DNA of 64,000 nt, from NCBI GenBank assembly GCA_946220865.1, contig CAMJYM010000007.1:1959-65958 (forward strand), written 5' to 3'. This document shows positions 34,661 to 56,283 of the stretch, piece after piece. The notes below the pieces were generated by a model. The model was not told the DNA's origin. It worked only from the letters and a program-made list of their open reading frames with translations, and did not search any database. This DNA comes from an uncultured Clostridia bacterium (GTDB taxonomy: Bacteria > Bacillota > Clostridia > Saccharofermentanales > DTU023). How positions within the stretch are numbered: position 1 is the stretch's first letter; each line of letters begins with the position of its first letter. Position numbers and translations under genes: made by a program.

Positions 34661-34665
34661 TTTTT

Positions 34666-34960
34666 GTGCAACGTAGCAACTAATGGATGGTTTTCCTTTG
34701 GTTTTTCTGATTTTTATGCAACTTAGCAACTAGTGGATGGGTCCGCGTGCAAGATTCAAAGTAGTGGATGGTTCGGCGTGCAAGTTCTCAAGTAATGGAT
34801 GGTTTTAGCCTTAGTTGGCTGAGGCTAACCATCCACTACTTGAATTTTTGTCCAAAATTCAGGAAATCCGAAATGAGAGCGGGGGCCAGCCGAGCTAAAC
34901 CGCGCCACGTCTCGTTGGCTCCCACGCTGCGTTCTCGCCCTCACCATGTCACGCGGCGCT
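34666..34960 (+). repeat. left inverted arm of the sugar cassette, built from reiterated 31-bp words
   Basis: Terminal 25-mer GTGCAACGTAGCAACTAATGGATGG (34666-34690), then 3 further degenerate units ending in TGGATGG, a long hairpin at 34788-34843 and a shared inner segment. Confidence 0.8.
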
Positions 34961-40455: not shown

Positions 40456-40548
40456 CGACCTTCACCCCCCGGAAAACATCTTGCTAGAGCACAGGGCCAT
40501 TATTTCAGGCTCAAGGCTTTTTTTCAAACGTGAAGTGAGCCAGAATTA

Positions 40549-40954
40549 CCTTCGGTTTTCCTGAATTTCGGACAAAATTTCAAGTTGTGGATGGTTTCGC
40601 TCGGCTGGCGACGGCCTCAGCGTGGCTCCTCTCGGCTAGCGATGGTCCTTAGTGCAGTTTCGCTCAGCTGGATGTCTGCTTTCATTTCGGTTTTTCTGAA
40701 TTTCACACAAATTTTCAAGGTGTGGACGGTTAGCCTAGGAAAACTCAGGCCCAAACCATCCACACCTTGAGAACTTGCACGTCCAACCCATCCACAACTT
40801 GGAATCTTGAATGCGGGCCCATCCATTAATTGCTAAGTTGCATGAAAATCAGAAAAACCAAAGAAAAATCGTCCATTAGTTGAAACGTTGCATAAAAAAA
40901 GGGGCCCACCCAGCGCGAAAAAAGGATGACCATCCATTAGTTGCGACGTTGCAC
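40549..40954 (-). repeat. right inverted arm of the sugar cassette
   Basis: The reverse complement is collinear with 34666-34960. The terminal 25-mer is at 40930-40954. There are five CCATCCA...TTG...TTGCA units, and the inner TTGAAATTTTGTCCGAAATTCAGGAAAACCGAA segment occurs twice (about 40549-40600 and 40681-40730). Confidence 0.8.
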
Positions 40955-41037
40955 GATAATCAGAAAAGGCGAAGACAGAGAAGGCTTGTACCATACACTA
41001 CTCCCACCGCACCCCTTTTCACCGACAGGGCATATCT

Positions 41038-41149
41038 AAAATTTTTGCGGTAATCCGCATTTTTTTCACGAAGTCATTGTATCCCAGGACTGATGAAGAT
41101 ATCTAGTCTTAAATCTAAAATTTTTGCGGATTCCGCAATTTTTTCACGC
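41038..41149 (-). repeat. orphan copy (A) of the 110-bp promoter/operator cassette
   Basis: About nine-tenths identical by eye to 56175-56283 and in the same orientation. It contains the boxes TGCGGTAATCCGCA (41046-41059) and TGCGGATTCCGCA (41125-41137), each flanked by A/T runs and CACG. Confidence 0.8.
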
Positions 41150-41412
41150 TATATGCGGTCCATATCAGTCTGCGTCGCCTGCTCCAATTCGGCCATTCTC
41201 TCGTCTTTCGACGAATCCGTCTTGCCGAACAACGCCGGCAGATTTTCCTGAAACTGTTTATGCCACTTAGACAGAGTTGCCGGCGCTATCTGGTACGTTC
41301 CGGCCAGCTCATTTAGGCTCTTTTCCCCGCGTAATAGCTCACTGATGACTTTCGCTTTGAATTCTGCGCTGTAATTGGTTCTTTTCTTACTTATGTTTAC
41401 TATTGTATTCAC
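41149..41412 (-). mobile_element. IS3-family transposase OrfA, N-terminal part only
   Basis: KKRTNYSAEFKAKVISELLRGEKSLNELAGTYQIAPATLSKWHKQF is an HTH_Tnp_1-type OrfA. The reading frame ends at the edge of repeat A, and no OrfB follows. Confidence 0.7.
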
Positions 41413-41512
41413 TTACTGCCGACTATGCTTGTCTCATTTCTGGGGTCCACTACATATTGTTTTCGCTTGCTTCAGGTTTTTCCTGTCTCATTTTGGGGAC
41501 CACTATATTTGG

Positions 41513-43426
41513 TCACGATTTTAGTTGCTCCTGATATTCATTCCAATTCTTTTTCAGACTTGGAAGTTCAGAAAGAGCCAATCCGGCCGCGCTTAATACC
41601 ACACCCAACCACGTGGGAAAATCAATCTTTGATAACTTGCAAACACCCCATATAACAAATATCAAAGCCGCAACAATCAGCAATTTCCATACGATCGACC
41701 AGACAATTTTCAGAAGGGCTTTTCTGTCTTGCTTTTTCTTGGCTTTAGCCTTTTCCTGTGCTTCTATAGCATTTACTCTATCCGTCAGCTTATCAATCTG
41801 TTGTTGCTTTTCTTTCCTCTGAGCGAGTGCCTGAGAAAGCTGACCCTGCAATTCCTGAACATTGCCTGAAAGCTCTTGGATAGTTTTATCACGCTCCAAA
41901 AGTAATCTTCTGTTCTGAGCAAGAGTTTCTTGAGCTTGAGCAAAATGCTCCTCTGAGAAATCCAGCGAATCTTCAATATTGTCTTCGGTTAAATTCTCCG
42001 GAAGTGTAGTCTTTTCTTTCAGCGCTACAATTCTTGCCGCAGCATCCTCCTGGGAGAGTTCACCAGAAACTGCCTTGTTACGAATGTCCTTATATATAGT
42101 TGCAATTCCTTGTGTAATATAGCTGGCAAGTATCGTTCTTGCTTTAATGACCACATCCAGATTCTTAGGAAATTCTGTAGAGCCGAATCCACGATTTAAC
42201 TTATACCAGAGAAGATTTGTAATATAACTCAAGCTAATAGCATAATCACAGTATTTCTCCCCCGTTTCATTTCTTTGTGCTTCGGCAATTGCCTTGGAAA
42301 TTTCCCTTACCCGTCTTGTGTCGGTTACGCATAAATACTTGGATGCCAAGTAATCTGCAGTCTGGTATCCTTTCCGCAATTTATTGATGTGGCTGCAGAA
42401 CACGAAACCTTCTGTGTTAAGCTCATCTGTAACAGGATAAGCACCAATCTCTATGCCTTCGAGGCTATATTCAACATCTGCCGTGGTGTAGTAATTTTCC
42501 TTCTCATCTTTTCTGATGGAGTGCTCCGTATGAAGTTTCCTAAAAAACTCTACCTTCTTATCTGATATATCCGATATTGACTGACAACCATCAACAATGT
42601 CCTTCATCGCCTGCGTGAAGTTAATCTCTCCCCGCCCAGACAAAATGCGTTCAGCCCTGCCGTAAAACTGATCAACATCGTCCGCAACCTTTGAGAAATA
42701 TTTAAGTGTGATTACTTTCCCGCCGCGATTCGCATCATCGACCAGCTTTAAAAAGTCATCTGCCAGAGTTTTGAACAAAATCCCGTTCAATCCGGCAATA
42801 TCAAAGAGAATTTCTGTGTCCAAGAAAAGTGTAATCGGATGGCCAAGACTACCAAATTCCGAAATGTTAAAGGCAAGTCCTGAATACAGAATACTGCCTT
42901 CGCGGATAGCGGAGATTGTGTCCGTAATCGAATTGTTATTTTCATTCGTCAGTAAAAATTCACCGATAATCTGCTGGTATTGAGGCTCGCCATCCTCATC
43001 TAGAACAAAAGCTATAAATTCCTGAGCAAGCTTTTCTTTCCTTAGGTTCTGAACACCTTTTTCATCAGCATACCGTAGCAGCGCGTCAGTAATACCTTTG
43101 CTCTTCTCCTCTGATTGCTGTCGATAGGATTGGAATTTGGCATTGCCTTGAATAGTGCTTGCTTGATATGACTGATATGTTCTCTTAACGTCTGGAATAC
43201 TGCGTATTGCTGTCCTGATAACAGCAATCGGCGGGTTAAAGCCAAATTCCTCATTAAGATAACCTTGGATCTCTGTCGATGTAAAATTGTACAAAGATTT
43301 TAAAACAACAATATACTTTATGAACTCAGAGAGTATCTGATAAGGACTATGGTATTCTTTCGAATTATACAGCTCTTTAAATGTTGCATAAGACGCCATG
43401 ATGGATTTTGAATACGTTTGCCTCAA
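41513..43426 (-). CDS. hypothetical 637-aa protein with a C-terminal coiled coil and two TM helices
   Basis: Long AT-rich ORF with a TTG start 6 nt after GAGGTG. The C-terminus has heptad-rich QELSGNVQELQGQLSQALAQRKEKQQQIDKL, then ALLKIVWSIVWKLLIVAALIFVIWGV and WLGVVLSAAGLALSEL. No family was recognised. Confidence 0.7.
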   Translation of the reverse strand: MRQTYSKSIMASYATFKELYNSKEYHSPYQILSEFIKYIVVLKSLYNFTSTEIQGYLNEEFGFNPPIAVIRTAIRSIPDVKRTYQSYQASTIQGNAKFQSYRQQSEEKSKGITDALLRYADEKGVQNLRKEKLAQEFIAFVLDEDGEPQYQQIIGEFLLTNENNNSITDTISAIREGSILYSGLAFNISEFGSLGHPITLFLDTEILFDIAGLNGILFKTLADDFLKLVDDANRGGKVITLKYFSKVADDVDQFYGRAERILSGRGEINFTQAMKDIVDGCQSISDISDKKVEFFRKLHTEHSIRKDEKENYYTTADVEYSLEGIEIGAYPVTDELNTEGFVFCSHINKLRKGYQTADYLASKYLCVTDTRRVREISKAIAEAQRNETGEKYCDYAISLSYITNLLWYKLNRGFGSTEFPKNLDVVIKARTILASYITQGIATIYKDIRNKAVSGELSQEDAAARIVALKEKTTLPENLTEDNIEDSLDFSEEHFAQAQETLAQNRRLLLERDKTIQELSGNVQELQGQLSQALAQRKEKQQQIDKLTDRVNAIEAQEKAKAKKKQDRKALLKIVWSIVWKLLIVAALIFVIWGVCKLSKIDFPTWLGVVLSAAGLALSELPSLKKNWNEYQEQLKS

Positions 43427-43665
43427 GCCAGATCACCTCTCTTACTTTTGTGCTTCTCGATTCTTAATATACCCTTGGTGTCAATGACATCAATCACAGC
43501 TCCTAGGTTTACTGCTCCATTCGATTCATGGGATTAAACCTTGGTTACTTGCAAAGCCTGTGCGCCGGCCTATATTGACTATACGCTTTACAAACTCCGT
43601 ATCCAATCAAATCACCTAGCCCATTATTGATTATATCGTCAAGCTCGGCAAGACCGATGCCACAG

Positions 43666-43983
43666 TTATACTGTATAACTTCTAGGAAAGCCGAGATAGC
43701 TACAGCTATCAGAACTACCCACACCCTCGGCCATATGACGCAATATCGTCAGTGGAACGAACAGCCAGATGTTATTAAGGATCTCCAAGCGAAGGGATGG
43801 CGAAGAAAAGAACTGCTTATAAAACAAGAACAGCTCCATTTCCCCCATAGCATCTCCTTCCGCTTTATACATAAGCGTCATGCAGATGATGAAAATGAGG
43901 TAATAAACCAAGAGTACCGCATTCCATTTTTTACCCAGCATCAGAGAAAGCAAGGCAACAAGAATTCCAATAACCACAACCAC
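43666..43983 (-). CDS. small membrane protein, possibly a truncated VanZ-like protein
   Basis: Two to three hydrophobic segments, and NNIWLFVPLT resembles the VanZ N-x3-F-x-P motif. A competing plus-strand ORF (43627..44046) looks less protein-like. Confidence 0.3.
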   Translation of the reverse strand: MVVVIGILVALLSLMLGKKWNAVLLVYYLIFIICMTLMYKAEGDAMGEMELFLFYKQFFSSPSLRLEILNNIWLFVPLTILRHMAEGVGSSDSCSYLGFPRSYTV

Positions 43984-44125
43984 AATTGGATTATTGTGCA
44001 GCCATTATTTAGATCGAAGAATTCCTTTTCATCTTTATCCAGGTAGATCTTTTATCCTTTCACATGCTTGACCCATACTGCCCATGGGAAAGTGAGATCT
44101 GCTGATTGTTAATGTCGTAATACGT

Positions 44126-44359
44126 CTACGTATCCACAGTATCATTCGAGTAGAAAGTTCGTATGACTGTGGTGTATCCAAGGCTTTTGGGTGTCGATAA
44201 GCCGGACGCGTTGAGATAAGTCACTACGGCTTTTCTTCCCAACTCATCATACTCGTAGAGGACTCCGTATTGCCCCATGGTAAGCGGTATCGGCCTATCC
44301 TCTTCATCATAATACATCTCGGTCTCAATTCTTCCATTCCCATAGAACGTTCTCTTCAT
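44126..44359 (-). pseudogene. RHS/YD-repeat protein fragment
   Basis: 77 aa with YD-type repeats (YEYDELGRKAVVTY, FYGNGRIETEMYYDEEDRP). It is isolated, with no flanking RHS core. Confidence 0.4.
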
Positions 44360-44499
44360 TATTGCGTATCCAGACTTTTTCTGGTAGGCTTACCTTCTAG
44401 GGTCAGCTGAATCAATCAGCAAGACAGTTTAAATATTATTGGCTGCCAAGTGTCATCAACAGAAAACTGGGAGCCATTTTCTTTCCTGTTTAAGCCGAA

Positions 44500-45010
44500 A
44501 GAGCCATAGCAAAATGGGTGCAAAAAGATCTCTCAGGATCTTTTGCAGGTTCATTACCAAGAAGGTCAGATGGATTGAGGTTTCGCTCGTATCCTAGCGA
44601 CGCATCATCACGCGACCCAGGGAATAGCCGCTTTTGCCTTCTCCAAACTTGCCTTCAAGCGAGTTTCATTCCCTAGGCTCTTTTACCACTCCAGACGTTT
44701 CAACTCAGCATACTGTACCTTGTCTTAGGGCGGCCTGCCCAGTAGTCGTTCGTTCAAATGGATACCGTGTTCCTTGCAGTAACTCATTCTCGTTCGGAAG
44801 ATCTAGTGTGCTTGGACACGTTCTGGGTAGTGGCCGCATCTGGCGTGGTAGGCCTCGTTGGCCCGGTTCGCCCCTGTGAAGACTTTCAAATTCCAAAGTT
44901 TTCAGATGCGTCAGGATATCTCTTTGCGTCTTTTGCTGTGGCTTGCAGGTTTCGTCTATATTACGCTGCCTCCTTTATCAAAAGAGGATAAGGTATCATA
45001 AATTGCGCAC
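44500..45010 (-). mobile_element. candidate 5-prime fragment of a group II intron (domains I-III), ORF-less
   Basis: The minus strand starts GTGCGC at 45010. The stretch is GC-rich and stem-rich with no ORF. CCTAAG...TATGC resembles the tetraloop-receptor motif. A long-range pairing CTAGGGAAT / ATTCCCTGG is present. The 3-prime limit is uncertain. Confidence 0.4.
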
Positions 45011-45090
45011 ATTGAAAAAATAAGGAACACGGTGGGTTCCCTCACTTGGTAAGATAGGTTTGAGCAAAAACACCGAGGAGGAAACGAACC

Positions 45091-45246
45091 GTGTCTGAGA
45101 AAATTATACAGTTGAACGAAGAAGCAATAAAAGGCGAACTGGGGAATCTGGTACGACAAAGTGTGGAGGATACGCTGAATGCGCTGCTGGATGCAGAAAC
45201 AGATCGTCTGACGAACGCGAGCCGCTATGAGCGAACGGAAGGATGA
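45091..45246 (+). mobile_element. IS256-family transposase, N-terminal 51 codons only
   Basis: VSEKIIQLNEEAIKGELGNLVRQSVEDTLNALLDAETDRLTNASRYERTEG-stop matches the conserved IS256/Mutator N-terminus (NALLDAE...YER). Confidence 0.7.
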
Positions 45247-45329
45247 GTCGTTTAGGCGGAGCACAGCGTGAGCTGATTCCCCCCCCTCATGGGGGATTCT
45301 AAAAAACACCAGGTGATTCAAGAAAGTGC

Positions 45330-45431
45330 ACAAGACTATTGACGGTACCGTATGTTAAATCGCGGATCAAAATGTCTTTAGGCGGTATGAGTCCTTTAGA
45401 ATACAGGAACAGCTTGGGGCTCTGCGGTTAA
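45330..45431 (+). mobile_element. IS3-family OrfB (integrase) C-terminal remnant
   Basis: PYVKSRIKMSLGGMSPLEYRNSLGLCG-stop matches the conserved IS3 OrfB tail (RIK..L...SP.EYR). Confidence 0.6.
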
Positions 45432-45475
45432 ACAGATCAGGTCCAGGATTTTGTCCGCACCCCCGGGTTTGAAAT

Positions 45476-46252
45476 TTATTTTGCCCGTTTACATTCAAAC
45501 CGATAGATTGCTTCTAATATAACCTGTATTTCATCCTTCCAACCGTGGTACAAACGCTCATTGGTAGTCTCATAAACAACATCATCATTAATCAAGTTCC
45601 CAGATACAGCAGAAATCATGGCTCCACGGCATTTTCGCCGGTGGCAGATCGTATAAATAGCACTGCTTTCCATATCAACATTCAAGCATCCAAGCTTTGA
45701 TAACTTTTCAATCCATTCAGGTGTTTCTCCATAAAAAGCATCATCAACTGCATTTATGCCATAGTGTAGACCGTAGCCAAGTTGCGGCTGAAGTTCCCGC
45801 GCTACTTCAAGGATGGTCGAAGTAAGATCAAAATCAGGCACAGCCGGGAAACAGTCGGGAACATAGAATTTAGAGGTTCCCTCATTCTTCATTGATCCAG
45901 TAGAAATGATAAGATCGCCAATCTTGATATCAGACTGCAGAGCACCCGTGCTTCCGATTCTAATGAGACATTTGGCTCCGATATTAATGAGTTCTTCACA
46001 GGCAATAGCTGCAGATGGACAACCCATGCCTGTAGAAGTAGTCGAAATGGTGATCCCCTTATACGTCCCAGTAAAAGTACGGTGTTCTCGATGATCAGCC
46101 ATTAACTTAGGCTGATCGAGATATTCCGCGACAATATCACTTCTTTTTGGATCACCTGGAAGTAAAACATATTCACCTACATCTCCTGGTGCAAGATGAA
46201 TGTGGTATTGGCGTTTTCCGAGTGTTCTTTCTTCTTTGTTAAGTATCTGCAT
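45476..46252 (-). CDS. nucleoside phosphorylase, PNP/UDP family (uridine phosphorylase-like)
   Basis: HIHLAPGDVGEYVLLPGDPKRSD, STGMGCPSAAIACEEL and DMESSAIY motifs. Confidence 0.85.
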   Translation of the reverse strand: MQILNKEERTLGKRQYHIHLAPGDVGEYVLLPGDPKRSDIVAEYLDQPKLMADHREHRTFTGTYKGITISTTSTGMGCPSAAIACEELINIGAKCLIRIGSTGALQSDIKIGDLIISTGSMKNEGTSKFYVPDCFPAVPDFDLTSTILEVARELQPQLGYGLHYGINAVDDAFYGETPEWIEKLSKLGCLNVDMESSAIYTICHRRKCRGAMISAVSGNLINDDVVYETTNERLYHGWKDEIQVILEAIYRFECKRAK

Positions 46253-46313
46253 GATACGATCTCCTTTAATTTATTGTATTCAAAATTTTAAAGCGTTTAA
46301 CCGCGGTCCTAAC

Positions 46314-47264
46314 CTAATGATCTAGAGAAGTCTTCTTCGACCGATTTTTTTCTTTTTGTCGGCATTGGATCGAATAGACGGATAATCCTGCAATGGTGGC
46401 AACATAAGGCAGCATCTGTACAAATTCTGAGGGGATTCGCATAATCTGCAGGATATTTGAAAGTCCGTCAAACAACGAAAAAACCATGGCCGACCACAAG
46501 ACCCCAATTGGACTAGCCTGACCCATAGCACTGGCAGCAAGTGCAATAAAGCCACGTCCAGCAACCATATCTCTCGTAAAGAGATTCAAATAGCCCATAG
46601 AAAGATACATACCGCCCATGCCGGATAGAAGCCCACAAATTATAATAGCAATATAACGGATTTTGGTAACATTCACGCCAACTGAAGTAGCCGCGTCAGG
46701 GTTTGCCCCCACACTTTGGATGCGCAAACCCAGCGGCGTTTTTTTCAGTATAAAGGAAATGACAGCGACCATAAGCAGCGACACATAAACGAGCAGGTTG
46801 TGACCTGAAATAATCTCTCCAAGAACAGGTATATCTTTGATGAAAGGAATATCAATATCCGGGAAGGAAAAACTCTTAAGAGAAGCACTCGTACCCTTTT
46901 CTCCGGTAAAAAGTTCCAGCATAAAAACTGTAAATCCTGTCGCGAATGTGTTGATGGCAGTCCCGCATAAGACATTGTTGGCGCGTAAATTTAAGTGGAA
47001 ATAAGCAAATACTAAACTAAGAATGATCGCACTGCCCAAGCCTCCAACGATACCCCATAGTAAACTTCCGCCAACAGCACTCGCCAAAACACCAGAAAGT
47101 GCTGAACAGAGCATTATCCCTTCGAGTCCTAAGTTAACCACTCCTGCTTGTGAGCAAACTGCTGCGCCAAGTGCAGCAAAAATAATGGGTGTAGCAACCC
47201 GAATCCACATACAAACAAAGTCTGTACTGAAAATAACCTTGAGCAGATCAGACATTGATGTCAT
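46314..47264 (-). CDS. ABC transporter permease, BMP/nucleoside type
   Basis: 316-aa polytopic protein in the order typical of nucleoside (Bmp/Nup/Rns) uptake operons. Confidence 0.85.
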   Translation of the reverse strand: MTSMSDLLKVIFSTDFVCMWIRVATPIIFAALGAAVCSQAGVVNLGLEGIMLCSALSGVLASAVGGSLLWGIVGGLGSAIILSLVFAYFHLNLRANNVLCGTAINTFATGFTVFMLELFTGEKGTSASLKSFSFPDIDIPFIKDIPVLGEIISGHNLLVYVSLLMVAVISFILKKTPLGLRIQSVGANPDAATSVGVNVTKIRYIAIIICGLLSGMGGMYLSMGYLNLFTRDMVAGRGFIALAASAMGQASPIGVLWSAMVFSLFDGLSNILQIMRIPSEFVQMLPYVATIAGLSVYSIQCRQKEKNRSKKTSLDH

Positions 47265-48366
47265 TTCCTTTCAATGAGGAATCATTTGCAGCATTTTGTT
47301 TTTCCCGCTCAGCCGATTGAACGATGAGTTTTTGTCTGAATCTGTGCAATAAAGCATCAGAAGCAATCAGTAACATCATAACTGCTTGAATAACCAAAAC
47401 CATTTCGTAGGATACATCGGAGGAACGACTCATGATCTCTGCGCCAACGTTTAAATAAGCAATAAAAAGCGCTGAAACAGGCACGAGTAAGGGATTTAAT
47501 CTTGCCAACAGGCAAACTACAATACCGGTCCAACCATAACCCGGTAAAGCTGTCCACTTGAAACGTGCATACATACCCATCAATTCCACAGCACCACCTG
47601 CTCCGGCTACAGCTCCTGCAATAATTTGAACAAGAAACATGACCGCAGCTGCATTAATTCCTGCATAGTTGGCAAAATGAGCATTATCTCCTGTTACACG
47701 GAGTTTATAACCAATACGCAAACGAAATAGAAGGAACCAAACGAAAAGGCAGAAAATAAGGGCGATCGGGATACCTGCGTGAATTCGAGTACCTGAAATA
47801 ATAAGCGGCAGCCTTGCGGATTCCTGAATCTTATGCGACTGGAAGGCTGTTGTTGCAGTATCCCTGTAATGATAATTCAATAGATAAACTGAGACATAGA
47901 GGCATACATAATTGAGCATGATAGAAGTAACAAGCTCGCTGACGCCCCAAAGGAGTTTTAAGATTGCAGGGATTCCAGCAGCAATAGCGCCGAGTAAAGC
48001 ACCAAAAAGAATGGTCACCGGCAAATGAATGGCCAGCGGTAATTGCAAATTTATCCCCGCGATCATTGCTCCACAGGCTCCAATAAAGAAAGCTCCTTCC
48101 GAAATCATAGAGAATTGACCGGATCGAAAAATAAGAGTCACCGCAAGTGCGGTGAAAATTAAAGGTGTTGCACCCTCAATAATATTGCCCATTCGTCTTA
48201 TAGACGAAAACGGTCCAAGAAAAAAGCTCTGAATGGCTACCACGGGCATTTTACTTACCATAAAAATAATGGCAGACACCAACAAGCAAGCAATTGCTAC
48301 GATGATGGCCATCTTTGTCAAATCCACAAAAAGATTGATCCGTTTATTATTCATTCGCAGCCTCAT
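47248..48366 (-). CDS. ABC transporter permease, BMP/nucleoside type
   Basis: 372-aa polytopic protein that overlaps both neighbouring genes. Confidence 0.85.
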   Translation of the reverse strand: MRLRMNNKRINLFVDLTKMAIIVAIACLLVSAIIFMVSKMPVVAIQSFFLGPFSSIRRMGNIIEGATPLIFTALAVTLIFRSGQFSMISEGAFFIGACGAMIAGINLQLPLAIHLPVTILFGALLGAIAAGIPAILKLLWGVSELVTSIMLNYVCLYVSVYLLNYHYRDTATTAFQSHKIQESARLPLIISGTRIHAGIPIALIFCLFVWFLLFRLRIGYKLRVTGDNAHFANYAGINAAAVMFLVQIIAGAVAGAGGAVELMGMYARFKWTALPGYGWTGIVVCLLARLNPLLVPVSALFIAYLNVGAEIMSRSSDVSYEMVLVIQAVMMLLIASDALLHRFRQKLIVQSAEREKQNAANDSSLKGNDINV

Positions 48367-49927
48367 CTACTTGTTCTTTAGTCTGTTTGTCTATGCCCAG
48401 CATATAGCGTCCCAGATTGTCCTCTGTTAATTCGGAAAGCTGCGGGAAATACGCAGCAATTTCGCCCTCAAACATCACCAGTAAACGATCAGAAAGACAA
48501 AACAATTCATTTAAGTCACTGGAAATAAGGAAAACCGTTTTACCCGCATCCCTCATGGCTACCAATCTGCGCCGAATAAATTCACTCGCACCTACATCAA
48601 CTCCACGCGTTGGCTGATCAGCAATAATGATCTCAGGATCACTGGATAATTCCCGTGCCAAAACTACTTTTTGAATATTTCCCCCAGATAAACTGGTAAT
48701 TTCCACGTCAGAACTCTGAGCCAAAACACCATAAGATTTGATCATCTGACGACCATACTCCCTGATCGCTTTTAGTCTCAGCAACCCTCCTTTGCTAAAG
48801 TCAGGTAAATTCACTTTATCCGCTAACATATTGTCAGTGATAGAAAGCGTCGGAGCCAGACCAATAGTCATCCGATCTTCAGGAATGTAGCTAAGTTTTC
48901 GTAATCTCAGCTGACGGATCGATGAGTTTTTGATTGATTGATTGAATATTTCAATTTCTCCTCCCTCGTATTGACACATACCAGTAAGTGCCTCAACGAG
49001 CTCAGCCTGACCATTTCCCTCTACTCCCGCTAAACCGAGAATCTCTCCACGTTTCGCCACAAAAGAGATACCTTTTAAAACTTTTCGGCCTTCGTCATTC
49101 ATCATGGAAAGATTTTTTACTCTTAACACGGTTTCGCCAGGTTGAGGGGCTTTTTTTTCAAAGTTGAGCACCACATCTCTGCCAACCATCATATGAGAAA
49201 TCTGCTCTTCAGAAAGCTTAGATAATGGGTACACTCCAACCGTTCGGCCCTGGCGCATGATGGTAATACGATCACAGAGTTCACGAACCTCCCCTAATTT
49301 GTGACTGATAAAGATAATGGTGTATCCATCATTTTTCAGACTCCTGAGCTGAACAAAGAGTTCCCGTGTTTCCTGAGGAGTGAGAACAGCGGTCGGCTCA
49401 TCGAGAATCAAAATTTTTGCACCTCGGATCAAGGCTTTGAGAATTTCCAGCTTTTGTTTTTGGCCTACAGTTAAATCACGCACTTTTTGCTTAGGTTCAA
49501 TCGGCAGATTGTATTTTTGGGAGATATTCAAAACCTGCTGTTCCGCTTTTTTTCTATCAATAACAAGGCCGCAGACCGTTGGTTCTATCCCCAGAATCAT
49601 ATTATCCATAGAAGATAGCGATTCAACCAGCATAAAATGCTGATGTACCATGCCAATACCTATTTGGATAGCGGTATGAGGGGACGCGATCTCGACAGCT
49701 TTTCCATTAATATATATCGTTCCACGAGTCGCACGCTCTTCCCCAAAAAGAATTTTCATCAGGGTAGACTTGCCTGCCCCGTTTTCACCGCTTAAAGCAT
49801 GTATTTCGCCTGTATTCACGCTAAAAGTGACATCTTTATTGGCCACTACACCATTGGGGTACACCTTTGTGATACCCTCCATGCGTAAGGCTTCTTTATT
49901 TACCATTATCCCACCCGTTTTTCTCAT
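48347..49927 (-). CDS. ABC transporter ATP-binding protein with duplicated ABC cassettes
   Basis: GENGAGKST Walker A, LSVGQKQ-type signature (LTVGQKQKLEI), ILILDEPTA, and a second cassette with LSGGNIQK. The true start may be the ATG at 49906. Confidence 0.9.
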   Translation of the reverse strand: MRKTGGIMVNKEALRMEGITKVYPNGVVANKDVTFSVNTGEIHALSGENGAGKSTLMKILFGEERATRGTIYINGKAVEIASPHTAIQIGIGMVHQHFMLVESLSSMDNMILGIEPTVCGLVIDRKKAEQQVLNISQKYNLPIEPKQKVRDLTVGQKQKLEILKALIRGAKILILDEPTAVLTPQETRELFVQLRSLKNDGYTIIFISHKLGEVRELCDRITIMRQGRTVGVYPLSKLSEEQISHMMVGRDVVLNFEKKAPQPGETVLRVKNLSMMNDEGRKVLKGISFVAKRGEILGLAGVEGNGQAELVEALTGMCQYEGGEIEIFNQSIKNSSIRQLRLRKLSYIPEDRMTIGLAPTLSITDNMLADKVNLPDFSKGGLLRLKAIREYGRQMIKSYGVLAQSSDVEITSLSGGNIQKVVLARELSSDPEIIIADQPTRGVDVGASEFIRRRLVAMRDAGKTVFLISSDLNELFCLSDRLLVMFEGEIAAYFPQLSELTEDNLGRYMLGIDKQTKEQVDEAANE

Positions 49928-50042
49928 TCATAAGTCTTTTCGGTACCGATCTTGCGAATACCTAATGAAAAAGATAATAAACGACAAATCCGCGGGCAGT
50001 TATATTCTGCCAACGGATCTGTCGCCTTGCAAAGGATGAAGA

Positions 50043-51302
50043 TTAAGGCTTCATGCCGTCGCGAAGTTCAGCAACCTTTTCTGTTTCCATTCCAAAGGCA
50101 CTGCCAACTTTAATGCTGCCATCGCTAATTTTGGCAGCAATGTCATTCAACTTTGACCGGATATCCTGGGGAACCAGTTTCTCGTAGTTCGCGTTTTCAG
50201 CCAAACCTACCGCTCCATCTTTAATGCCAAGAATATAATTCTCACCAAGAACATAATCACCTTTTATGTAACCTTGGACAGCATTAAAAATTGAATCTCC
50301 GATATTCTTCATTGTTGATGAAACAACATTTCTCACACCCTTCTGGTCGCTTTCGTGCAGCATACCCCAAATATCATTGTCACATGCAATAAAAAGTTTA
50401 TTACGATCAGCAGAAGCTTGCACCGAACCGAGTATGCTCTGAGACGCAGGAGCATAGATAATTTGGGCACCTTGGTTATACATCTGTGTCGTCATTTCCA
50501 GACATTTAGGAACATCTTCAAAGGAACCTACATAGCTTGTCAGGAGTTTAATCTCAGGATCGATATATTTAATTCCTTCAATGTAGCCAATCAGAAAGTC
50601 ATTGATGTTAGGAGTATCCATGGACCCGACAAAACCAAGAATGCGTTTATTTTTTTCCACTTTTTCATCACCAGAATCCAGCATGAGCGCTGCAAGTGCA
50701 CCACCCATAAAAGCTGTTTCATTAGACTGGTATGTCACGCCCATCATATTCTTGGCATTGGCAACATCGAAATCGACAATCCCGTCAAAAAATAAATAAT
50801 GCTTTTGGGGATACTTGGCCGCAATTTCTTCTGCGAGCTCTTTAACTGACCAAGTGCCGGAGATAATCAAATCCCAATCCTTTTCACTCTCATCCAGAAA
50901 ATAACCTTCATAAGTCGTTTCGTCGCGGCCCATTTCTATAATTTTCACTTCACAACCCAGCTCATCACGCAAGCGATAAATACCCGAAGCTGCGTTGTCA
51001 TAGAACCCTTTATCTCCTAAATTTCCGTTAACCAGATAAACCAGCTTGAAAGGATGATCTTGCTTTGTCGTATTAACCTTTTCAGCTGCATCGGTTGTAA
51101 CTTCATTTGGCTCACTCTTCTGAGCTGCGGCCTCAGTGTTTGCAGAATTTTCCTGAGTTTCATCCATTTTTCCTGCTTTAGTTTCCTCAGCAGTTTTAGC
51201 CGTTGCAGAACTTTTGGGTGCCGCATTCTGAGTGCAGGCAGCCCCAAGCGTGACAAGCATGACCAGAGCCAGCACACATGCCATAAATTTCGCTGTTTTC
51301 AT
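50043..51302 (-). CDS. BMP-family ABC transporter substrate-binding lipoprotein (nucleoside-binding)
   Basis: Start at ATG 51302 (MKTAKFMACV) after GAGGAGG. Lipobox LGAAC, a Thr/Ala/Glu-rich linker, then a Bmp/PnrA-like domain. Confidence 0.85.
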   Translation of the reverse strand: MKTAKFMACVLALVMLVTLGAACTQNAAPKSSATAKTAEETKAGKMDETQENSANTEAAAQKSEPNEVTTDAAEKVNTTKQDHPFKLVYLVNGNLGDKGFYDNAASGIYRLRDELGCEVKIIEMGRDETTYEGYFLDESEKDWDLIISGTWSVKELAEEIAAKYPQKHYLFFDGIVDFDVANAKNMMGVTYQSNETAFMGGALAALMLDSGDEKVEKNKRILGFVGSMDTPNINDFLIGYIEGIKYIDPEIKLLTSYVGSFEDVPKCLEMTTQMYNQGAQIIYAPASQSILGSVQASADRNKLFIACDNDIWGMLHESDQKGVRNVVSSTMKNIGDSIFNAVQGYIKGDYVLGENYILGIKDGAVGLAENANYEKLVPQDIRSKLNDIAAKISDGSIKVGSAFGMETEKVAELRDGMKP

Positions 51303-51373
51303 GTTGTTCCTCCTCGTTATAAATAACCAAACTGAAATCTCAGATTGATCTTGACCAAACATTATTTAATACG

Positions 51374-52141
51374 CTACATCCGATCTTCAAGAATGATGGT
51401 CCGCATGGCCTCAACGGCAACTTCAATGGCGCGATATTCCAGATTTTTGGGGTTATTTTTTCTGCTTTCATTGGAATAGGCTTTGTAATTTGTTGCTGAA
51501 ATGAGGACTGTCGCAGTTCTTATCCGCAAAATATCGCCAATAATAAACAGCACAGCAGACTCCATCTCGGTAGAACATGCACCGCCTTTTTCATAGCTCA
51601 ACCAACGAGGTTCCAAGTCAAAGCCCACAGGCTTTTCAGCTGCAGCGATTTGAGTATAAAAAGAAGCTTTAGTGATTGTAGGTGCAATATTGTACCGATA
51701 GCCTATTTTGCACGCGGCTTCTTCCAATTTTTCAAGCAGATACATATTAGGAACGGAGGGAAACTCAATCGGTGCATAGTGATTAGCTACTCCTTCCATC
51801 CTTACTGCAGCATTGGGAATCACAATATCCCCAACCTCCACTTTTGGTGATGTGGAGGCACAGGAACCGACACGGAGCATGGTGTGTGCACCTAATTCAT
51901 ATAATTCCTCTACAGCAATTGCGGTTGAAGGACAGCCAATACCTGTTGAACAGACCGTAACGGGCACACCCTCCAGAGTACCCGTAAATGAACGAAATTC
52001 ACGATTATACCCTACCTCTCTGGGTTCATCCAAATAGGTGGAAATTTTTTCAGAGCGTTCAGGGCTGCCAGGTAGAAACACATACTTACCAATATCCCCT
52101 TTGCTTAGTCCGATATGCATCATTTTTTTTAATTTGCCCAT
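51374..52141 (-). CDS. nucleoside phosphorylase, PNP/UDP family, paralog 2
   Basis: MMHIGLSKGDIGKYVFLPGSPERS, STGIGCPSTAIAVEEL and EMESAVLF motifs. Confidence 0.8.
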   Translation of the reverse strand: MGKLKKMMHIGLSKGDIGKYVFLPGSPERSEKISTYLDEPREVGYNREFRSFTGTLEGVPVTVCSTGIGCPSTAIAVEELYELGAHTMLRVGSCASTSPKVEVGDIVIPNAAVRMEGVANHYAPIEFPSVPNMYLLEKLEEAACKIGYRYNIAPTITKASFYTQIAAAEKPVGFDLEPRWLSYEKGGACSTEMESAVLFIIGDILRIRTATVLISATNYKAYSNESRKNNPKNLEYRAIEVAVEAMRTIILEDRM

Positions 52142-52159
52142 AGCATTGACTCCTATAGT

Positions 52160-52939
52160 CTATTCAGCTTTTTGCTGATCAGCACGGATCAATTTACACA
52201 TTGCTGAAATTCCAACCTCAATTGCCCGCTGTTCATAATCTCTTGGATAGTCATCGTCATCATTTGAATAATGTCGATAATTCGTTGCTGAGATCATCAC
52301 CGAAGACATACGGATGCCTAAGCTGGCTCCTACTAAAAACAATACCGAGCATTCCATACTGGTACTTGTAGCTCCAGCTTTTTCATACGCTTCCCACTTC
52401 CATTTGAGTTCGGGATAAACCGGCTTAGTCTCAGGTGAAACTTCCGTATAAAATGAATCCTTTGTAATGGTGATACCCGTATCAAAAGGATATCCACTTT
52501 CTATAGCCGCCTGTTTTAAGGCCTTAAAAGAGGTATAATCAGGTACCGCTGGAAATTCAACAGGCAAATAATGACTGCCTGTACCTTCCATGCGGACAGC
52601 TCCCTTAGGAATAACAACCGTTCCGATTTTAACCTGTTCTGCTGTTGATGCACACGACCCTATGCGCATCATGGTATCCGCGCCGCACTGATATAGTTCT
52701 TCAACAGCGATGGCTGCGGATGGACCGCCGATTCCAGTGGACGTAACAGCAACCTTCTCTCCGCAAAGCTCACCCACATAAGTCAGATATTCACGGTGGT
52801 GGACAAGTTCCTTTGGATGATTAAAATATTGAGCAATGAGTTTTACTCTCTCTACACTGCCCGGAATAAAAACATAGCGACCGATTTCACCTTCACTTAT
52901 CCCAATATGCATCATTTTTTTAGGTTCATTCATTCTCAT
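52160..52939 (-). CDS. nucleoside phosphorylase, PNP/UDP family, paralog 3
   Basis: MMHIGISEGEIGRYVFIPGSVERV and STGIGGPSAAIAVEEL. It is clearly a paralog of 51374..52141. Confidence 0.8.
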   Translation of the reverse strand: MRMNEPKKMMHIGISEGEIGRYVFIPGSVERVKLIAQYFNHPKELVHHREYLTYVGELCGEKVAVTSTGIGGPSAAIAVEELYQCGADTMMRIGSCASTAEQVKIGTVVIPKGAVRMEGTGSHYLPVEFPAVPDYTSFKALKQAAIESGYPFDTGITITKDSFYTEVSPETKPVYPELKWKWEAYEKAGATSTSMECSVLFLVGASLGIRMSSVMISATNYRHYSNDDDDYPRDYEQRAIEVGISAMCKLIRADQQKAE

Positions 52940-53410
52940 TTCTCCTGGATTAAAACATTCAACCTTTGAGCCAATTATAGTGAGGAATTATTGGCTGAAA
53001 CTCTTCATAACAGGCCTAAAACCATTGAAGTGGTCTATGAAATGGTGTTCTGGAATACACCCTTTTAATAGACAGTCATTCTGACGGCAATGTGATCTTC
53101 ACATAGTTGTAAAACCTTTATAAAAGCCGAGGGTTTTCCTGAAAAGCTCACTATTTTCACCCATTAACCTTCACTTCCTCAACAAAGAAAACACAAAAGT
53201 CTTTCTTGTGAATAACATTTTTTTGTTAAAATAAATTAACATAATGTGCATATTATGTCAACATTCATCGTTAAAATTCAGAAAACTCTCGTAAATGAGC
53301 TAAATAGATTATTTCTTTTATTTACAGAAAATGGAGAAGATGATAACTTTAGTGGAAAAATTGCTGGTATTCACATTAAGACGTATTTATTGTGAGGATT
53401 GTATTTCAAA

Positions 53411-54166
53411 ATGAGAAACAAAAAAGCACAACGACAGACGGAGTTGATCAGGATACTAAAAACCCAAGGCTCATTACCCGTCAGCACACTTGCGCAAATT
53501 CTGGGGGTCTCCGGTATGACAATTAGGCGGGACTTAGCAGAATTAAGCGAGTATCAGCCAGAAATAGGTCATGATGAAAGAACTGAGTTAAATTACGGCT
53601 ACAATTTATTTGATGCACTAAAAAAATCAAATGACAAAAAAAACGCAATAGGGCTTTTTGCAGCTTCTTTAATCTCACCCGATGATATAATTATGATTGA
53701 TACTGGCAGTACAACCGCCAAGATGATACCACATTTACCTTTAAATAGGAATATTACAGTGCTTTGTTTTAATGCAAATGTGCTGTTTGAGCTGCGCTAC
53801 AAGAGTGGCATAAAACTATTATTTTGTGGTGGTGTCTTCCACAAGGACACTGAAATGTTTGAGAGTCCTGAATCAATTCAATTCATTAACCGCATACGCG
53901 CAAATAAAGTGTTTCTTTCTGCTGCTGGCATTCATAAACAAATGGGCATTACATGCGTGAACCCCTACGAAGTTCCCACTAAAAAAGCGATCATTCATTC
54001 ATCCTTGCAACGCATATTACTGGTTGATTCAGGGAAATTTAATCAAATTCACCCTGCTTTCTTCTGCGATCTTGACGATATTCAAGTCATCGTAACAGAC
54101 AAAAACCTGTCAGAGGATTGGCGGAATTATATTCTAGAAAAAGAAATTACCTTACACTTGGTTTGA
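53411..54166 (+). CDS. DeoR-family transcriptional regulator
   Basis: RQTELIRILKTQGSLPVSTLAQILGVSGMTIRRDL HTH plus a DeoR C-terminal sensor domain. The ATG at 53411 is preferred over the track TTG at 53399. It is divergent from the nucleoside operon. Confidence 0.85.
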   Translation: MRNKKAQRQTELIRILKTQGSLPVSTLAQILGVSGMTIRRDLAELSEYQPEIGHDERTELNYGYNLFDALKKSNDKKNAIGLFAASLISPDDIIMIDTGSTTAKMIPHLPLNRNITVLCFNANVLFELRYKSGIKLLFCGGVFHKDTEMFESPESIQFINRIRANKVFLSAAGIHKQMGITCVNPYEVPTKKAIIHSSLQRILLVDSGKFNQIHPAFFCDLDDIQVIVTDKNLSEDWRNYILEKEITLHLV

Positions 54167-54289
54167 TCATTAAAATTCTTTCCGCAATTGTAACTGAAAT
54201 GCCATTTTAAATAAAAACGCCAAATCCAGGATGGCCAGTGCCGGCAAGGAATAATTAAAATTTGTGAGTGTGGGTTCTCTACAATATCA

Positions 54290-54410
54290 CTTATAAGTGC
54301 CGAGTTGGTGCTGGAACTCCAAGCATCACAGCAAAGAATCAGCCAGTTAACGATTGAACGTGACTGGTTGGAAAAAAGCTGACAAAATCTTTGGATAACC
54401 GTCAAACCTG
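54290..54410 (+). mobile_element. IS3-family OrfA C-terminal remnant with frameshift heptamer
   Basis: SAELVLELQASQQRISQLTIERDWLEK, then the canonical slippery A-AAA-AAG at 54372-54378. The -1 frame continues KLTKSLDNRQ for 14 codons only. Confidence 0.5.
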
Positions 54411-54787
54411 TGGGCGGTGAGATGGCATCTACATTTGTTGTTTGAAATGAGCGGGTGTGAGCTCGGAGATTTTCTCTTTTTCGCCAGCCTCGGACTTGCC
54501 TGCCTCGGTGAGACTGAAACCATGTTGTTTCGGCTAATACCTGCAGAAACCTTCATATCTATATACCCGCCGCAGCCGGATCGCTTTATTCTCTTCCTCT
54601 CCTGGCTTTTCTCCTGGCGGCAGTAAGACCACAAAATGCTCCCTCCACTCTTGCTAAATGAGATTCTCTTTACTGGCTCTGCTTGTCCGGTTCGGTGGCT
54701 CTCACCGCGCCGGACAGGCGGCTTCGCCGCACCGTAATAAACAAGTCTCGCTTCCAGCGCTTCTCTCACTTTCTTTTTTTCATGGAT

Positions 54788-54883
54788 GCTGTTTATCTTA
54801 TGATCAGCTTCTCGTTCAAGCTGATTATTTTTTGATCAGCTTCTCGTTCAAACCGTTTATCTTGTGAGCAGCTTCTCGTCCAA
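54788..54883. repeat. three tandem 32-bp copies of the 3-prime end of the ATPase gene
   Basis: The three units are 54788-54819, 54820-54851 and 54852-54883. The third unit holds the real last 8 codons plus the stop (LDEKLLTR-stop). The other two read LNEKLIIR-stop and LNEKLIKK-stop on the minus strand. Confidence 0.85.
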
Positions 54884-56173
54884 TAGGAAATCCTCGATCC
54901 CGATATACTGAATTCCATTCTCATCCTGCCAGGGTTTCATGTAGTCCTTGACAACCACGATCTTCCGGAAGGAATCCGGAATTCTGATCAGGGATGCGAT
55001 CTCCTGCTCTTTCTTTTCTGAGTCTGCAATTGTAAGCGCTGACTGAATATAGTAGCGCTCATCTCCACGATTTACCACAAAGTCAAGCTCCAGCTGCTTC
55101 CGGATATTCTTCCCTGAATCGTCCCTTACATTCTGCTCGACCATACCAACATCAACATCGAAGCCTCTGCGGATAAGGTCGTTGTAAAGGACATTCTCCA
55201 TCATGTGGGTTTCCTCCAGCTGTCTGAAGCCGAGTCTGACATTACGCAATCCTGGATCAGAAAAGTAATACTTGAGTGGGGTTTTGATGTATTTACGTCC
55301 TTTTACATCATACCGCTCTGCCTTCTGAATAAGAAATGCGTCCATGAAGAATCCAATGTATTTGTCAATTGTATCAGGCGCAATGCGAATCTGCCGCTCA
55401 CTGGCAAACGTGTTTGACAGCCTGCTTGGATTCGTTAAAGAGCCGATGCCGGAAGCAAGCACGTTCAGAAGAATCTCCAAAACCTCTGCATCATTGTTGA
55501 TCTGATGGCGCTCCAGGACATCTTTGATATAGGATCTGTTGAACAAATCCCGCAGATAACGACTCTTCTCTTCATACGATTCCATCATCCATACAAGTGG
55601 CATTCCGCCATAGGTATAGTAATCGCGCCACGCTCCGCGCTTATCTCCCTCATAAAGCTCGTAGACTTCCGCGAAAGACAGCGGATTGACACGAATCTCA
55701 TCCCCACGATCTCTGAACTGGGTAAGGATATCCGATGAGAGCATTTTAGAGTTACTGCCCGTTACATAGATGTCCGCATTCGGGAGCTTCATGAGTCCGA
55801 GCAGCACATCGATAAAGGTGAGTTTTTCATTCGGGTCATCTACATACGGATTAGGGATTTCGCTCACAAATTGGATTTCATCAATAAACACATAGTAGCG
55901 TTTATCCTTATCCGGCATCCGCTCCTTCACGACTTTGTTCAGTTCAAAAGGATTTCTGTACTTCGCATTGTCGATCTCGTCCAGAGCGAGCCCTACGATC
56001 TGATCCTCTCCTACACCATTGTCCAGAAGGTACTGGCGGTAAAGGGTAAACAGAAGGTAGGACTTCCCGCTCCGGCGAAGACCGGTGATGACTTTGATAC
56101 GTCCATTGTCCTTTTTCCGGATCAGCTGATCCATATATTGTTTTCTTGCATATTGCATCGCTATAATCTCCAT
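54857..56173 (-). CDS. AAA ATPase of the AAA_14/DUF4143 type
   Basis: Walker A GLRRSGKS, Walker B YYVFIDEIQ, and a DUF4143-like C-terminal region. The true start is possibly the ATG at 56158 (MQYARKQYMDQL), which has a GGAG upstream. Confidence 0.8.
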   Translation of the reverse strand: MEIIAMQYARKQYMDQLIRKKDNGRIKVITGLRRSGKSYLLFTLYRQYLLDNGVGEDQIVGLALDEIDNAKYRNPFELNKVVKERMPDKDKRYYVFIDEIQFVSEIPNPYVDDPNEKLTFIDVLLGLMKLPNADIYVTGSNSKMLSSDILTQFRDRGDEIRVNPLSFAEVYELYEGDKRGAWRDYYTYGGMPLVWMMESYEEKSRYLRDLFNRSYIKDVLERHQINNDAEVLEILLNVLASGIGSLTNPSRLSNTFASERQIRIAPDTIDKYIGFFMDAFLIQKAERYDVKGRKYIKTPLKYYFSDPGLRNVRLGFRQLEETHMMENVLYNDLIRRGFDVDVGMVEQNVRDDSGKNIRKQLELDFVVNRGDERYYIQSALTIADSEKKEQEIASLIRIPDSFRKIVVVKDYMKPWQDENGIQYIGIEDFLLDEKLLTR

Positions 56174-56174
56174 G

Positions 56175-56283
56175 AAATTTTTGCGGCATCCGCATTTTTT
56201 TCACGAAGTCATTGTATCCCGGGACAGATGAACATATCAAGTCTTAAGTCTAAAAATTTTGCGGATTCCGCATTTTTTCACGC
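56175..56283 (-). promoter_or_regulatory. promoter/operator cassette (copy B) upstream of the ATPase gene
   Basis: Minus strand has TTGATA (56240-56235), an 18-nt spacer, then TACAAT (56216-56211). It is flanked by the palindromic boxes TGCGGATTCCGCA (56260-56272) and TGCGGCATCCGCA (56182-56194). The last 11 codons of the MFS gene are encoded inside the cassette. Confidence 0.6.

Follow-up and report, generated by a model that had tools for sequence, protein, structure and literature searches.

The window, i.e., the whole 64-kb stretch of DNA that was analysed, contains a low-GC interval (41071..56249) between the outermost of four short palindromic boxes. The GC content is 38-46% within this interval and 52-56% in its flanks. 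The interval encodes an ATPase, a DeoR regulator, three nucleoside phosphorylases, a Bmp-type ABC uptake system, a 637-aa coiled-coil protein and an OrfA fragment, and includes a pseudogene-rich stretch. The boxes belong to the two copies of the longest direct repeat of the window, copy A (41040-41143) and copy B (56175-56278), which align over 104 nt, ungapped and in direct orientation, with 88% identity. Taken as 41040-41149 and 56175-56283, the copies are about 88-90% identical and their flanks are unrelated; if one 1-nt indel is allowed, the block extends to 41038-41149 and 56173-56283. A sequence-only reading of this DNA had described by eye two copies with sharp edges and roughly nine-tenths identity, and the alignment gives a similarity of that order. 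The same reading took the repeat for a 110-bp cassette. The repeat exists, but the real unit is a mobile gene cassette of about 1.45 kb, in which the stop codon is frequently followed by a third box.

The repeat and the ATPase gene of copy B

Read in the sense of the ATPase gene, each copy consists of a box (box2), a sigma-70-type promoter and another box (box1). The boxes are imperfect composite palindromes of about 33 bp with the consensus GTGAAA, A-tract, TGCGG, 3 or 4 nt, CCGCA, A/T-tract, TTTCAC, and all have the same orientation relative to the gene. The pattern TTTTGCGGNNNCCGCANTTTTT has three exact matches in the 64-kb window, all of them within the two copies, against a chance expectation of 0.10; a 4-nt centre puts the fourth box (41036-41070) outside the pattern. 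The two boxes of about 30 bp that had been read in each copy are both present.

Copy B follows a gene encoding an MFS transporter and, like the elements of copy A, lies on the minus strand. Its box2 (56250..56283; in sense CGTGAAAAAATGCGGAATCCGCAAAATTTTTAG) is the upstream limit of the cassette: the homology of this region with at least 20 other loci ends at 56278-56283. As had been noticed, copy B encodes the end of the MFS gene, whose last 10 codons and stop codon are within box2. The promoter (56211..56240) is made of the -35 hexamer TTGATA (56240-56235), an 18-nt spacer and the -10 hexamer TACAAT (56216-56211), and scores 10/12. Box1 (56172..56205; in sense CGTGAAAAAAATGCGGATGCCGCAAAAATTTCATGG) begins about 5 nt past the -10 hexamer and spans the predicted transcription start and the 5'UTR, its 3' end overlapping the ribosome-binding site (RBS) GGAG (56171-56168).

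The sole gene of the cassette (54857..56158, minus strand) encodes a 433-aa ATPase and PD-(D/E)xK protein that matches the PADLOC HMM PDC-S01 (E = 7.1e-105, residues 5-433 of the 438-aa ORF) and, in Pfam, AAA_14 (E = 4e-25) followed by DUF4143 (E = 4e-14). It has thousands of homologues at 59-94% identity. Translation likely starts at ATG 56158, because this codon is preceded by GGAG at 56171-56168 and ATGCAGTATGC is conserved in the homologues; the upstream ATG 56173 was rejected on the same grounds. At its other end, the cassette meets the remainder of the island at 54773-54785, where the short minus-strand sequence CCATGAAAAAAAG may tentatively be read as a remnant of the left arm of a third box (box3), by comparison with the intact box3 of six homologous loci (L004, L007, L010, L016, L022, L023). 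Between the stop codon and this remnant, the 3' end of the ATPase gene is triplicated: positions 54791-54875 hold three tandem diverged copies of its last ~27 nt (GA(C/A)GAGAAGCTG(C/A)TCA..(A/G)ATAA). Copy B is the intact cassette, and the repeat is here the native 5' control region of the ATPase.

PDC-S01 is a candidate defence gene, in which an ATPase is fused to a PD-(D/E)xK nuclease (PMC13356809, PMC12988326, PMC3424549). It is reported to be the commonest single defence-candidate locus in rumen genomes and to rank fourth by frequency among the defence systems of all prokaryotes (PMC13356809, PMC12988326); most PDCs still await validation (PMC12988326). In the papers that we searched for DUF4143, PDC-S01 and COG1373, we found no description of boxes or cassette limits for PDC-S01-type ATPases. 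PDC-S01 now has a defined transcription unit, defined cassette limits and a specific co-evolving DNA motif that is directly testable for binding.

Conservation of the cassette and divergence of its boxes

We ran the genome-wide search that the sequence-only reading had proposed, comparing one box with 185,579 species genomes, and found 31 loci, with one or two per species genome. Nearly all are in rumen or gut MAGs (Lachnospiraceae, Oscillospiraceae, Succiniclasticum, Fretibacterium, Spirochaetales, Succinivibrionaceae, Syntrophales and Stecheria), which come from several phyla. An ATPase homologue (67-95% amino acid identity) adjoins the box in 23 of the 31 loci, mostly with the box at the 5' end of the gene. 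The box occurs almost exclusively beside the ATPase or in emptied cassettes and is not a common terminator-like repeat unrelated to ATPase genes. The copy number and the strict linkage with the ATPase also ruled out a dispersed REP- or MITE-like element. Features of IS200/IS605 or REP/RAYT elements are missing from the cassette: the ATPase is its only gene, there is no TnpA/RAYT, and the 64 kb hold only four boxes, all within the two copies.

The window shares nucleotide homology with these loci only from about 54871 to 56278-56283. When the homology breakpoints of 87 loci were compared, those on the upstream side clustered where box1 or box2 has its left edge, and those on the downstream side at the stop codon or at box3. 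The bounded homology and the accumulation of breakpoints indicate a discrete unit of about 1.45 kb that occurs in unrelated contexts. The ten contexts of one identical ATPase (P0029) were not counted as independent insertions, being strain variants of a single locus. Many contigs with close homologues of the ATPase measure merely 1.5-2.2 kb, approximately the length of the cassette, which suggests that a repeated or polymorphic unit makes assemblies end at the boxes.

To obtain an unbiased sample, we chose 80 metagenome loci by protein similarity alone (59-92% identity), corresponding to 69 distinct upstream regions. The direct repeat of two boxes is present in 61 of these 69 regions, with 21-32 of 32 positions matching (maximum of 19 for shuffled sequences); in the other eight, the second box is not clear. 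The boxes are mostly spaced by 73-85 nt, by 96-97 nt in the clade at 60% identity and by 104 nt in L140. The promoter of copy B, already suspected of reading into the ATPase gene, has a sigma-70-like counterpart (at least 8/12) between the boxes in 60 of the 61 loci. In sense, the layout is box2, a -35 element cTTGctat, 17-18 nt, a -10 element TAtAAT, about 5 nt and box1 (CGTGAAAAAAATGCGGATGCCGCAAAAATTTCAtGGAGG); some 8 nt separate the 3' end of box1, which overlaps the RBS, from ATGCAGTATGC. Box3 lies directly 3' of the stop codon in the six loci named above, and in the 60% clade it has that clade's own sequence.

Many cassettes sit in prophage-like islands. Some neighbourhoods are defence-island-like: a fragment of the C-terminus of a type I HsdR lies downstream of the cassette in L007, a Schlafen/AlbA_2-HATPase_c_4 protein is encoded at this place in L004, and in L023 (3069-4575) box3 is followed by a promoter (TTGACA-17-TACAAT) and a gene of a sister family, ATPase_2 + DUF234.

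The sequence of the box changes with the clade of the ATPase. The inner core is GCGG-N3/4-CCGC in the clade of the window and, in others, GCGTA-AA-TACGC, GCACC-TA-GGTGC, GTTCC-TT-GGAAC, TGATC-AG-GATCA or GTGCGGCATGCCGCAC, and the outer arms vary too. To the earlier question of whether every DUF4143-type ATPase gene carries the motif of the window, the answer is no: each clade has its own box sequence. A few clades (L134, L132, L121) have an asymmetric, non-palindromic core (GTTCCAATCTGC), and in L121 and L150 the asymmetric core flips its orientation from one box of the locus to the other. Boxes of the same locus are 0.83-0.84 identical in every clade, and the identity of box1 between loci falls from 0.85 to 0.61 and 0.49 for proteins that are at least 85%, 70-85% and less than 70% identical. 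This co-variation of site and protein is confounded by their physical linkage and by possible gene conversion. Contigs that share one metagenome-assembly accession prefix (JAEEGL01) carry several box types, which argues against a host factor.

We considered whether the boxes act as RNA or as single-stranded DNA. Both strands fold with essentially the same energy (-6.2 and -6.5 kcal/mol; shuffled sequences, -1.8), and we rejected this reading because the hairpin has no strand bias. A scan of positions 40000-57000 with Rfam gave no match up to E = 1. The palindrome had been called too tight for a hairpin; in fact a 5-bp stem with a loop of 3-4 nt can form, at about -6 kcal/mol. The accompanying idea of a site for a dimeric protein fares better: a role as DNA fits the change between clades, the equal energies and the asymmetric cores, and binding itself is what we infer. 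The tracking of clades by boxes and the equal folding of both strands point to a factor that varies with the cassette and recognises double-stranded DNA by its sequence. Since the cassette encodes the ATPase alone, the most economical reading is that this protein binds its own boxes. It thus seems most likely, from sequence comparison, that the boxes are bound by a cassette-specific protein, the ATPase itself acting as autorepressor.

The ATPase possibly contains a winged helix, as judged from its secondary-structure pattern and from two faint Pfam hints of winged-helix type around residues 215-310 (E = 0.05-0.14). A profile search aimed at diverse homologues yielded only close ones, and the AlphaFold2 model built on an alignment of 36 sequences (homologues with at least 80% identity) had a mean pLDDT of 52, too poor for a fold search. 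A sequence search of the PDB with the family profile gave no relative.

Copy A, the 15-kb island and its sister strains

Copy A had been read as a second promoter/operator cassette abutting the stop codon of an IS3 OrfA fragment. It does follow an IS3 OrfA-like ORF with a Pfam HTH_Tnp_1 domain (41149-41412, 87 aa), but the last 12 codons of this ORF (..EQATQTDMDRI*) are a conserved 36-nt cassette leader (41149..41185, minus strand). At the nucleotide level, the homology of the leader reaches 41184/41185 in ten loci (L003, L004, L025, L026, L039, L040, L042, L048, L053, L055), where the OrfA protein has no tblastn match. The leader being conserved without OrfA, the ORF borrows its last 12 codons from it. 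In those ten loci, the leader belongs to a gene in a phage-like island (capsid, portal, tail-tube and TerL-nuclease genes), of which it forms the 3' end.

The leader is followed on the minus strand by box2 (41115..41149) and by a promoter remnant (41076..41105; TAGATA-18-TACAAT, 9/12), whose -35 hexamer is degraded relative to the TTGATA of copy B, as previously remarked. The next box (41036..41070; CGTGAAAAAAATGCGGATTACCGCAAAAATTTTAGATA) is a hybrid of box1 and box3. On its left side it follows the -10 hexamer as box1 does, and its right flank (TTTYAGATA) matches that of box2 or box3 instead of the CATGGAGG and ATPase seen after box1. Beyond it come TTTTAGATA and gCCCTGtcGGTGAAAA, i.e., the flank and tail found after box3 or after solo boxes in L003, L004, L010, L015 and L016; the terminator-like tail is here a degenerate copy (40964..41035, minus strand; gCCCTGtcGGTGAAAA...). 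Because full cassettes have homologues of both leader and tail in their flanks, copy A is a cassette emptied of its ATPase only, apparently via recombination between box1 and box3, rather than a second promoter/operator cassette. Comparable forms occur elsewhere. Solo boxes lie between the same leader and tail in L003, L036, L042 and L056, a promoter and a hybrid box stand without a gene in L001, L015 and L024, and in L148, of the 60% clade, an empty box-promoter-box unit lies behind an intact ATPase gene whose box3 has the clade's own sequence.

The close relatives of the MFS gene reveal three allelic states of one chromosomal locus. The window-type arrangement is found in 19 contigs from several samples. 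In L158 (91-93% nucleotide identity), there is no box: the MFS gene has its native end (...SGRK*), a GH13 amylase-family gene follows about 100 nt on, and the segment from 56280 to 40515 of the window (15.8 kb) is replaced by 47 nt, the divergence starting at 56281/56280. In L159 (98.7% identity), the MFS gene runs into a single hybrid box (CGTAAAAAAATGCGGAATCCGCAAAAATTTTAGAT) and 15.2 kb are missing, which answers the earlier call for a comparison with relatives that might have lost the interval between the copies. The left flank, arm length and centre of this box are those of box2 of copy B; its right arm and flank are those of box1 of copy A, followed by the tail. The joint is an out-of-register product of box2 and box1, different from what the full 110-bp homology would give. 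L159 either arose by deletion or represents the pre-insertion state, and in both cases the crossover lay within a box. The GC content of the 15.2-kb interval and its box joints indicate that it is a foreign island with the boxes at its inner joints. A look-up of the DeoR protein recovered only the window-type arrangement, in its 19 contigs, and the island in no second context. This natural polymorphism with three states places the boxes at the joints of the gain or loss of a 15-kb island.

The near end of the 15.8-kb segment missing from L158 begins with the left arm of a box. Its far end, at 40515-40540, reads CACGTTTGAAAAAAAGCC, which loosely resembles the left arm CGTGAAAAAAATGC and may do so by chance. 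Between the tail and the amylase-family gene, a repeat-rich region (40515..40963), also absent from L158, holds one of two inverted arms (34657-34880 and 40551-40963; 79-86% complementary) with internal repeats (TGCAAC-N5-CAACTAATGGATGG; CCACAACTTGAAATTTTGTCCGAAATTCAGGAAAACCGAA). These arms flank the sugar genes MFS_2, GH36 and GH13. L158 lacks the right arm and has the MFS gene directly next to the GH13 gene, so the arms were added later and did not form the ends of a transposon by which the sugar genes arrived. At 33923-34660, the C-terminal part of a GH1 glycosidase (Pfam positions 288-449 of 453) extends up to the left arm, whose insertion may have truncated it.

Within the island, about 2 kb (43430-45470) are devoid of long ORFs and look like gene debris; two short ORFs scanned there had no Pfam match. 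The 637-aa ORF close to copy A was considered as a hidden recombinase and discarded, since it has no domain matches and consists of a coiled coil and C-terminal hydrophobic segments. A 65-nt direct repeat (52065-52129 and 52857-52921, 77% identical) at the 5' ends of two adjacent PNP_UDP_1 genes indicates a tandem gene duplication. At 26609-26740, there is a 66-nt tandem pair (71% identical).

Autoregulation, mobility and other readings of the boxes

In the explanation that we favour and consider somewhat probable, the repeat serves as the 5' control module of a single-gene ATPase-nuclease cassette that is self-contained and spreads horizontally, would be repressed by its own ATPase and has boxes that are also recombination joints. 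The order of the elements is box2, the sigma-70-type promoter, box1, the RBS, the AAA_14/DUF4143 ATPase-nuclease gene (PDC-S01) and, often, box3. A cassette-specific protein would bind, as a dimer, to the boxes that flank the RNA-polymerase site. The best candidate would be the ATPase, via the first half of its DUF4143 region, which is predicted to be helix-rich and is possibly a winged helix. With box1 over the predicted start site and 5'UTR, and box2 ending just upstream of the -35 hexamer, binding would hold a potentially toxic nuclease at a low level of expression. The boxes double as recombination joints because they are direct repeats. Copy A is then a second cassette, from which recombination between box1 and box3 apparently removed the ATPase and left the leader, box2, the promoter and the tail, and recombination between a box of copy B and one of copy A accounts for the 15.2-kb foreign island being there or missing.

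Some observations fit autorepression poorly. Even boxes of the same locus can have palindromes with different centres, of 3 or of 4 nt, which is awkward for a rigid dimer, the asymmetric conservation of the A/T tracts is not explained by a simple palindromic operator, and a third box 3' of the gene is superfluous for simple autorepression. The concerted evolution of the boxes could result from gene conversion between them instead of selection for a shared binder.

We take the regulatory reading as the most likely. A serious minority possibility, unlikely in our view and compatible with it, is that the boxes are att-like sites of a new mobile single-gene cassette, which would be excised as a circle and inserted at a box, through site-specific recombination or nuclease-triggered homing. 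Recognition of the clade-specific box would fall to the ATPase/PD-(D/E)xK protein or to an unlinked enzyme, and the control of the promoter would be secondary. The coincidence of boxes with cassette limits, the co-variation of box3 with the clade and the out-of-register joint of L159, which links box2 of copy B to box1 of copy A and is not the in-register 110-bp product, are all in line with this. So are the states of one and the same site, with a solo box or emptied in L003, L036, L042 and L056 and occupied in L004, L039 and L053, and the further solo or emptied forms of L015, L001, L148 and copy A of the window. The many gene-bearing metagenome contigs of 1.5-2.2 kb are as for a repeated mobile unit, and COG1373 is among the genes common to several gut genera (PMC10782964). 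Yet the cassette encodes no recombinase and strand transfer is not known for PD-(D/E)xK nucleases; the empty site of L158 lacks a box, the outer junctions of the island, with short microhomology and 47 nt replaced, resemble illegitimate joins, and a circular form was not observed. Mobility does not require two boxes around a promoter, and slippage or RecA can delete between 33-bp direct repeats with no need for a dedicated enzyme.

A related and rather improbable proposal is that PDC-S01 genes are autonomous mobile cassettes, with the encoded protein or a partner driving excision, integration or homing at the clade-specific boxes. If it were true, recombination from box to box could take along long stretches of adjacent DNA, the 15-kb nucleoside-uptake island being an example, and the very high copy number of PDC-S01 would partly reflect selfish spread. 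Two questions are now approachable by experiment: the recognition of its own boxes by the ATPase and the rearrangement of genomes by the cassettes.

We give little credence to the boxes being short intrinsic terminators or insulators, i.e., RNA hairpins that stop read-through, mainly antisense. Intrinsic terminators have a stable G+C-rich stem, typically of at least 7 bp, directly before a U-run. On the plus strand the box does read TGCGGCATCCGCA and then TTTTTTT, a terminator scan flags every box on that strand, the gene is bracketed by boxes, and some boxes (L085, L099) are perfect palindromes with a T-run. But the stem has only 4-5 bp (about -6 kcal/mol), the T-run directly follows it only on the strand antisense to the ATPase, and some clades have boxes without a stem (non-palindromic cores in L134, L132 and L121). 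A terminator needs neither a clade-specific sequence nor conserved outer arms (GTGAAA/TTTCAC) nor a fixed position around a promoter, and sense transcription must pass through box1.

It is very improbable that the boxes are ORB- or iteron-like sites for loading the AAA+ ATPase, or origins, serving an effector function or the replication of an excised element. Repeated boxes of ~33 bp do flank an AT-rich stretch directly upstream of an AAA+ gene, and PDC-S01 is abundant in archaea (PMC12988326), but the boxes are direct rather than inverted, the AT-rich spacer is a well-conserved promoter, and the cassettes occur in bacterial chromosomes and prophage-like islands, at times two per region, with no sign of an episome. 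Just as hard to credit are operators of a global regulator of the host or prophage unrelated to the ATPase, which would suit palindromic sites around a promoter and the many cassettes in prophage-like islands but not a box that is nearly confined to ATPase neighbourhoods or emptied cassettes and that, across several phyla, follows the clade of the ATPase and not the host.

The regulatory reading and the movement of the cassette both have parallels in known systems: the anatomy of the boxes resembles that of autoregulated toxin-antitoxin (TA) and defence loci, and their presence/absence behaviour recalls integron cassettes and phage morons. In the former (type II TA, BrxR/CapW), as in the cassette, palindromic sites with a locus-specific sequence bracket the promoter of a mobile, potentially toxic gene. 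The cassette differs in having no separate regulator gene, the presumed binder being the effector ATPase, in its two or three direct composite palindromes of ~33 bp, one of them past the stop codon, and in boxes that are also joints of rearrangements. Integron cassettes are promoterless and are accompanied by the tyrosine recombinase IntI and an attI site nearby. They share with the present unit a single gene between imperfect palindromes, occupied and empty sites, and arrays; unlike attC, the box has no core sites and co-evolves with the cargo gene, and the cassette has its own promoter. We saw no IntI integrase or attI, and a Pfam scan, which covered the larger ORFs at ~34-60 kb in the window and the ORFs checked in L003, L004, L007, L022 and L023, found no integrase beside a cassette. 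Phage morons are autonomous inserts of promoter, gene and terminator between conserved phage genes. Similarly, the cassette brings its own promoter and, in L003, L004, L039 and L053, lies between the end of a phage-island gene and a terminator with a Zn-ribbon gene, but it is bounded by repeated boxes and also occurs outside prophages, as in the window.

Two other likenesses are more partial. Archaeal Orc1/Cdc6 with ORB and rep with iterons also place an AAA+ gene beside repeated boxes of ~30 bp around an AT-rich stretch, in contrast to the direct boxes, the promoter spacer and the lack of signs of replication in the cassette. The pdif modules of Acinetobacter plasmids (XerC/XerD) are small gene modules with short palindromic sites in many contexts, but dif has 11-bp arms and a 6-bp spacer (28 bp) in inverted pairs, whereas the boxes are direct and have arms of ~15 bp around a 3-4-nt centre; inspection of the box sequence revealed no dif-like XerC/XerD site.

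Some loci carry further genes near the cassette. Past the stop codon of one ATPase allele, at a constant distance of about 110 nt, a group II intron reverse transcriptase gene lies on the opposite strand in L059, L060 and L065, and probably in L063 and L066; RVT_1 and GIIM matches in Pfam are on record for the first three. The same region holds three tyrosine recombinases in L058 and an IS66 fragment in L057. Finally, the end of an IMG/VR contig (L034, 97-341), where no ATPase is visible, contains three tandem units of a box and a promoter-like spacer, spaced by 74 and 148 nt, which have a common inner core (GCGGAAATCCGC) and differing outer arms (CTATTAGCC/GGCTAATAG).
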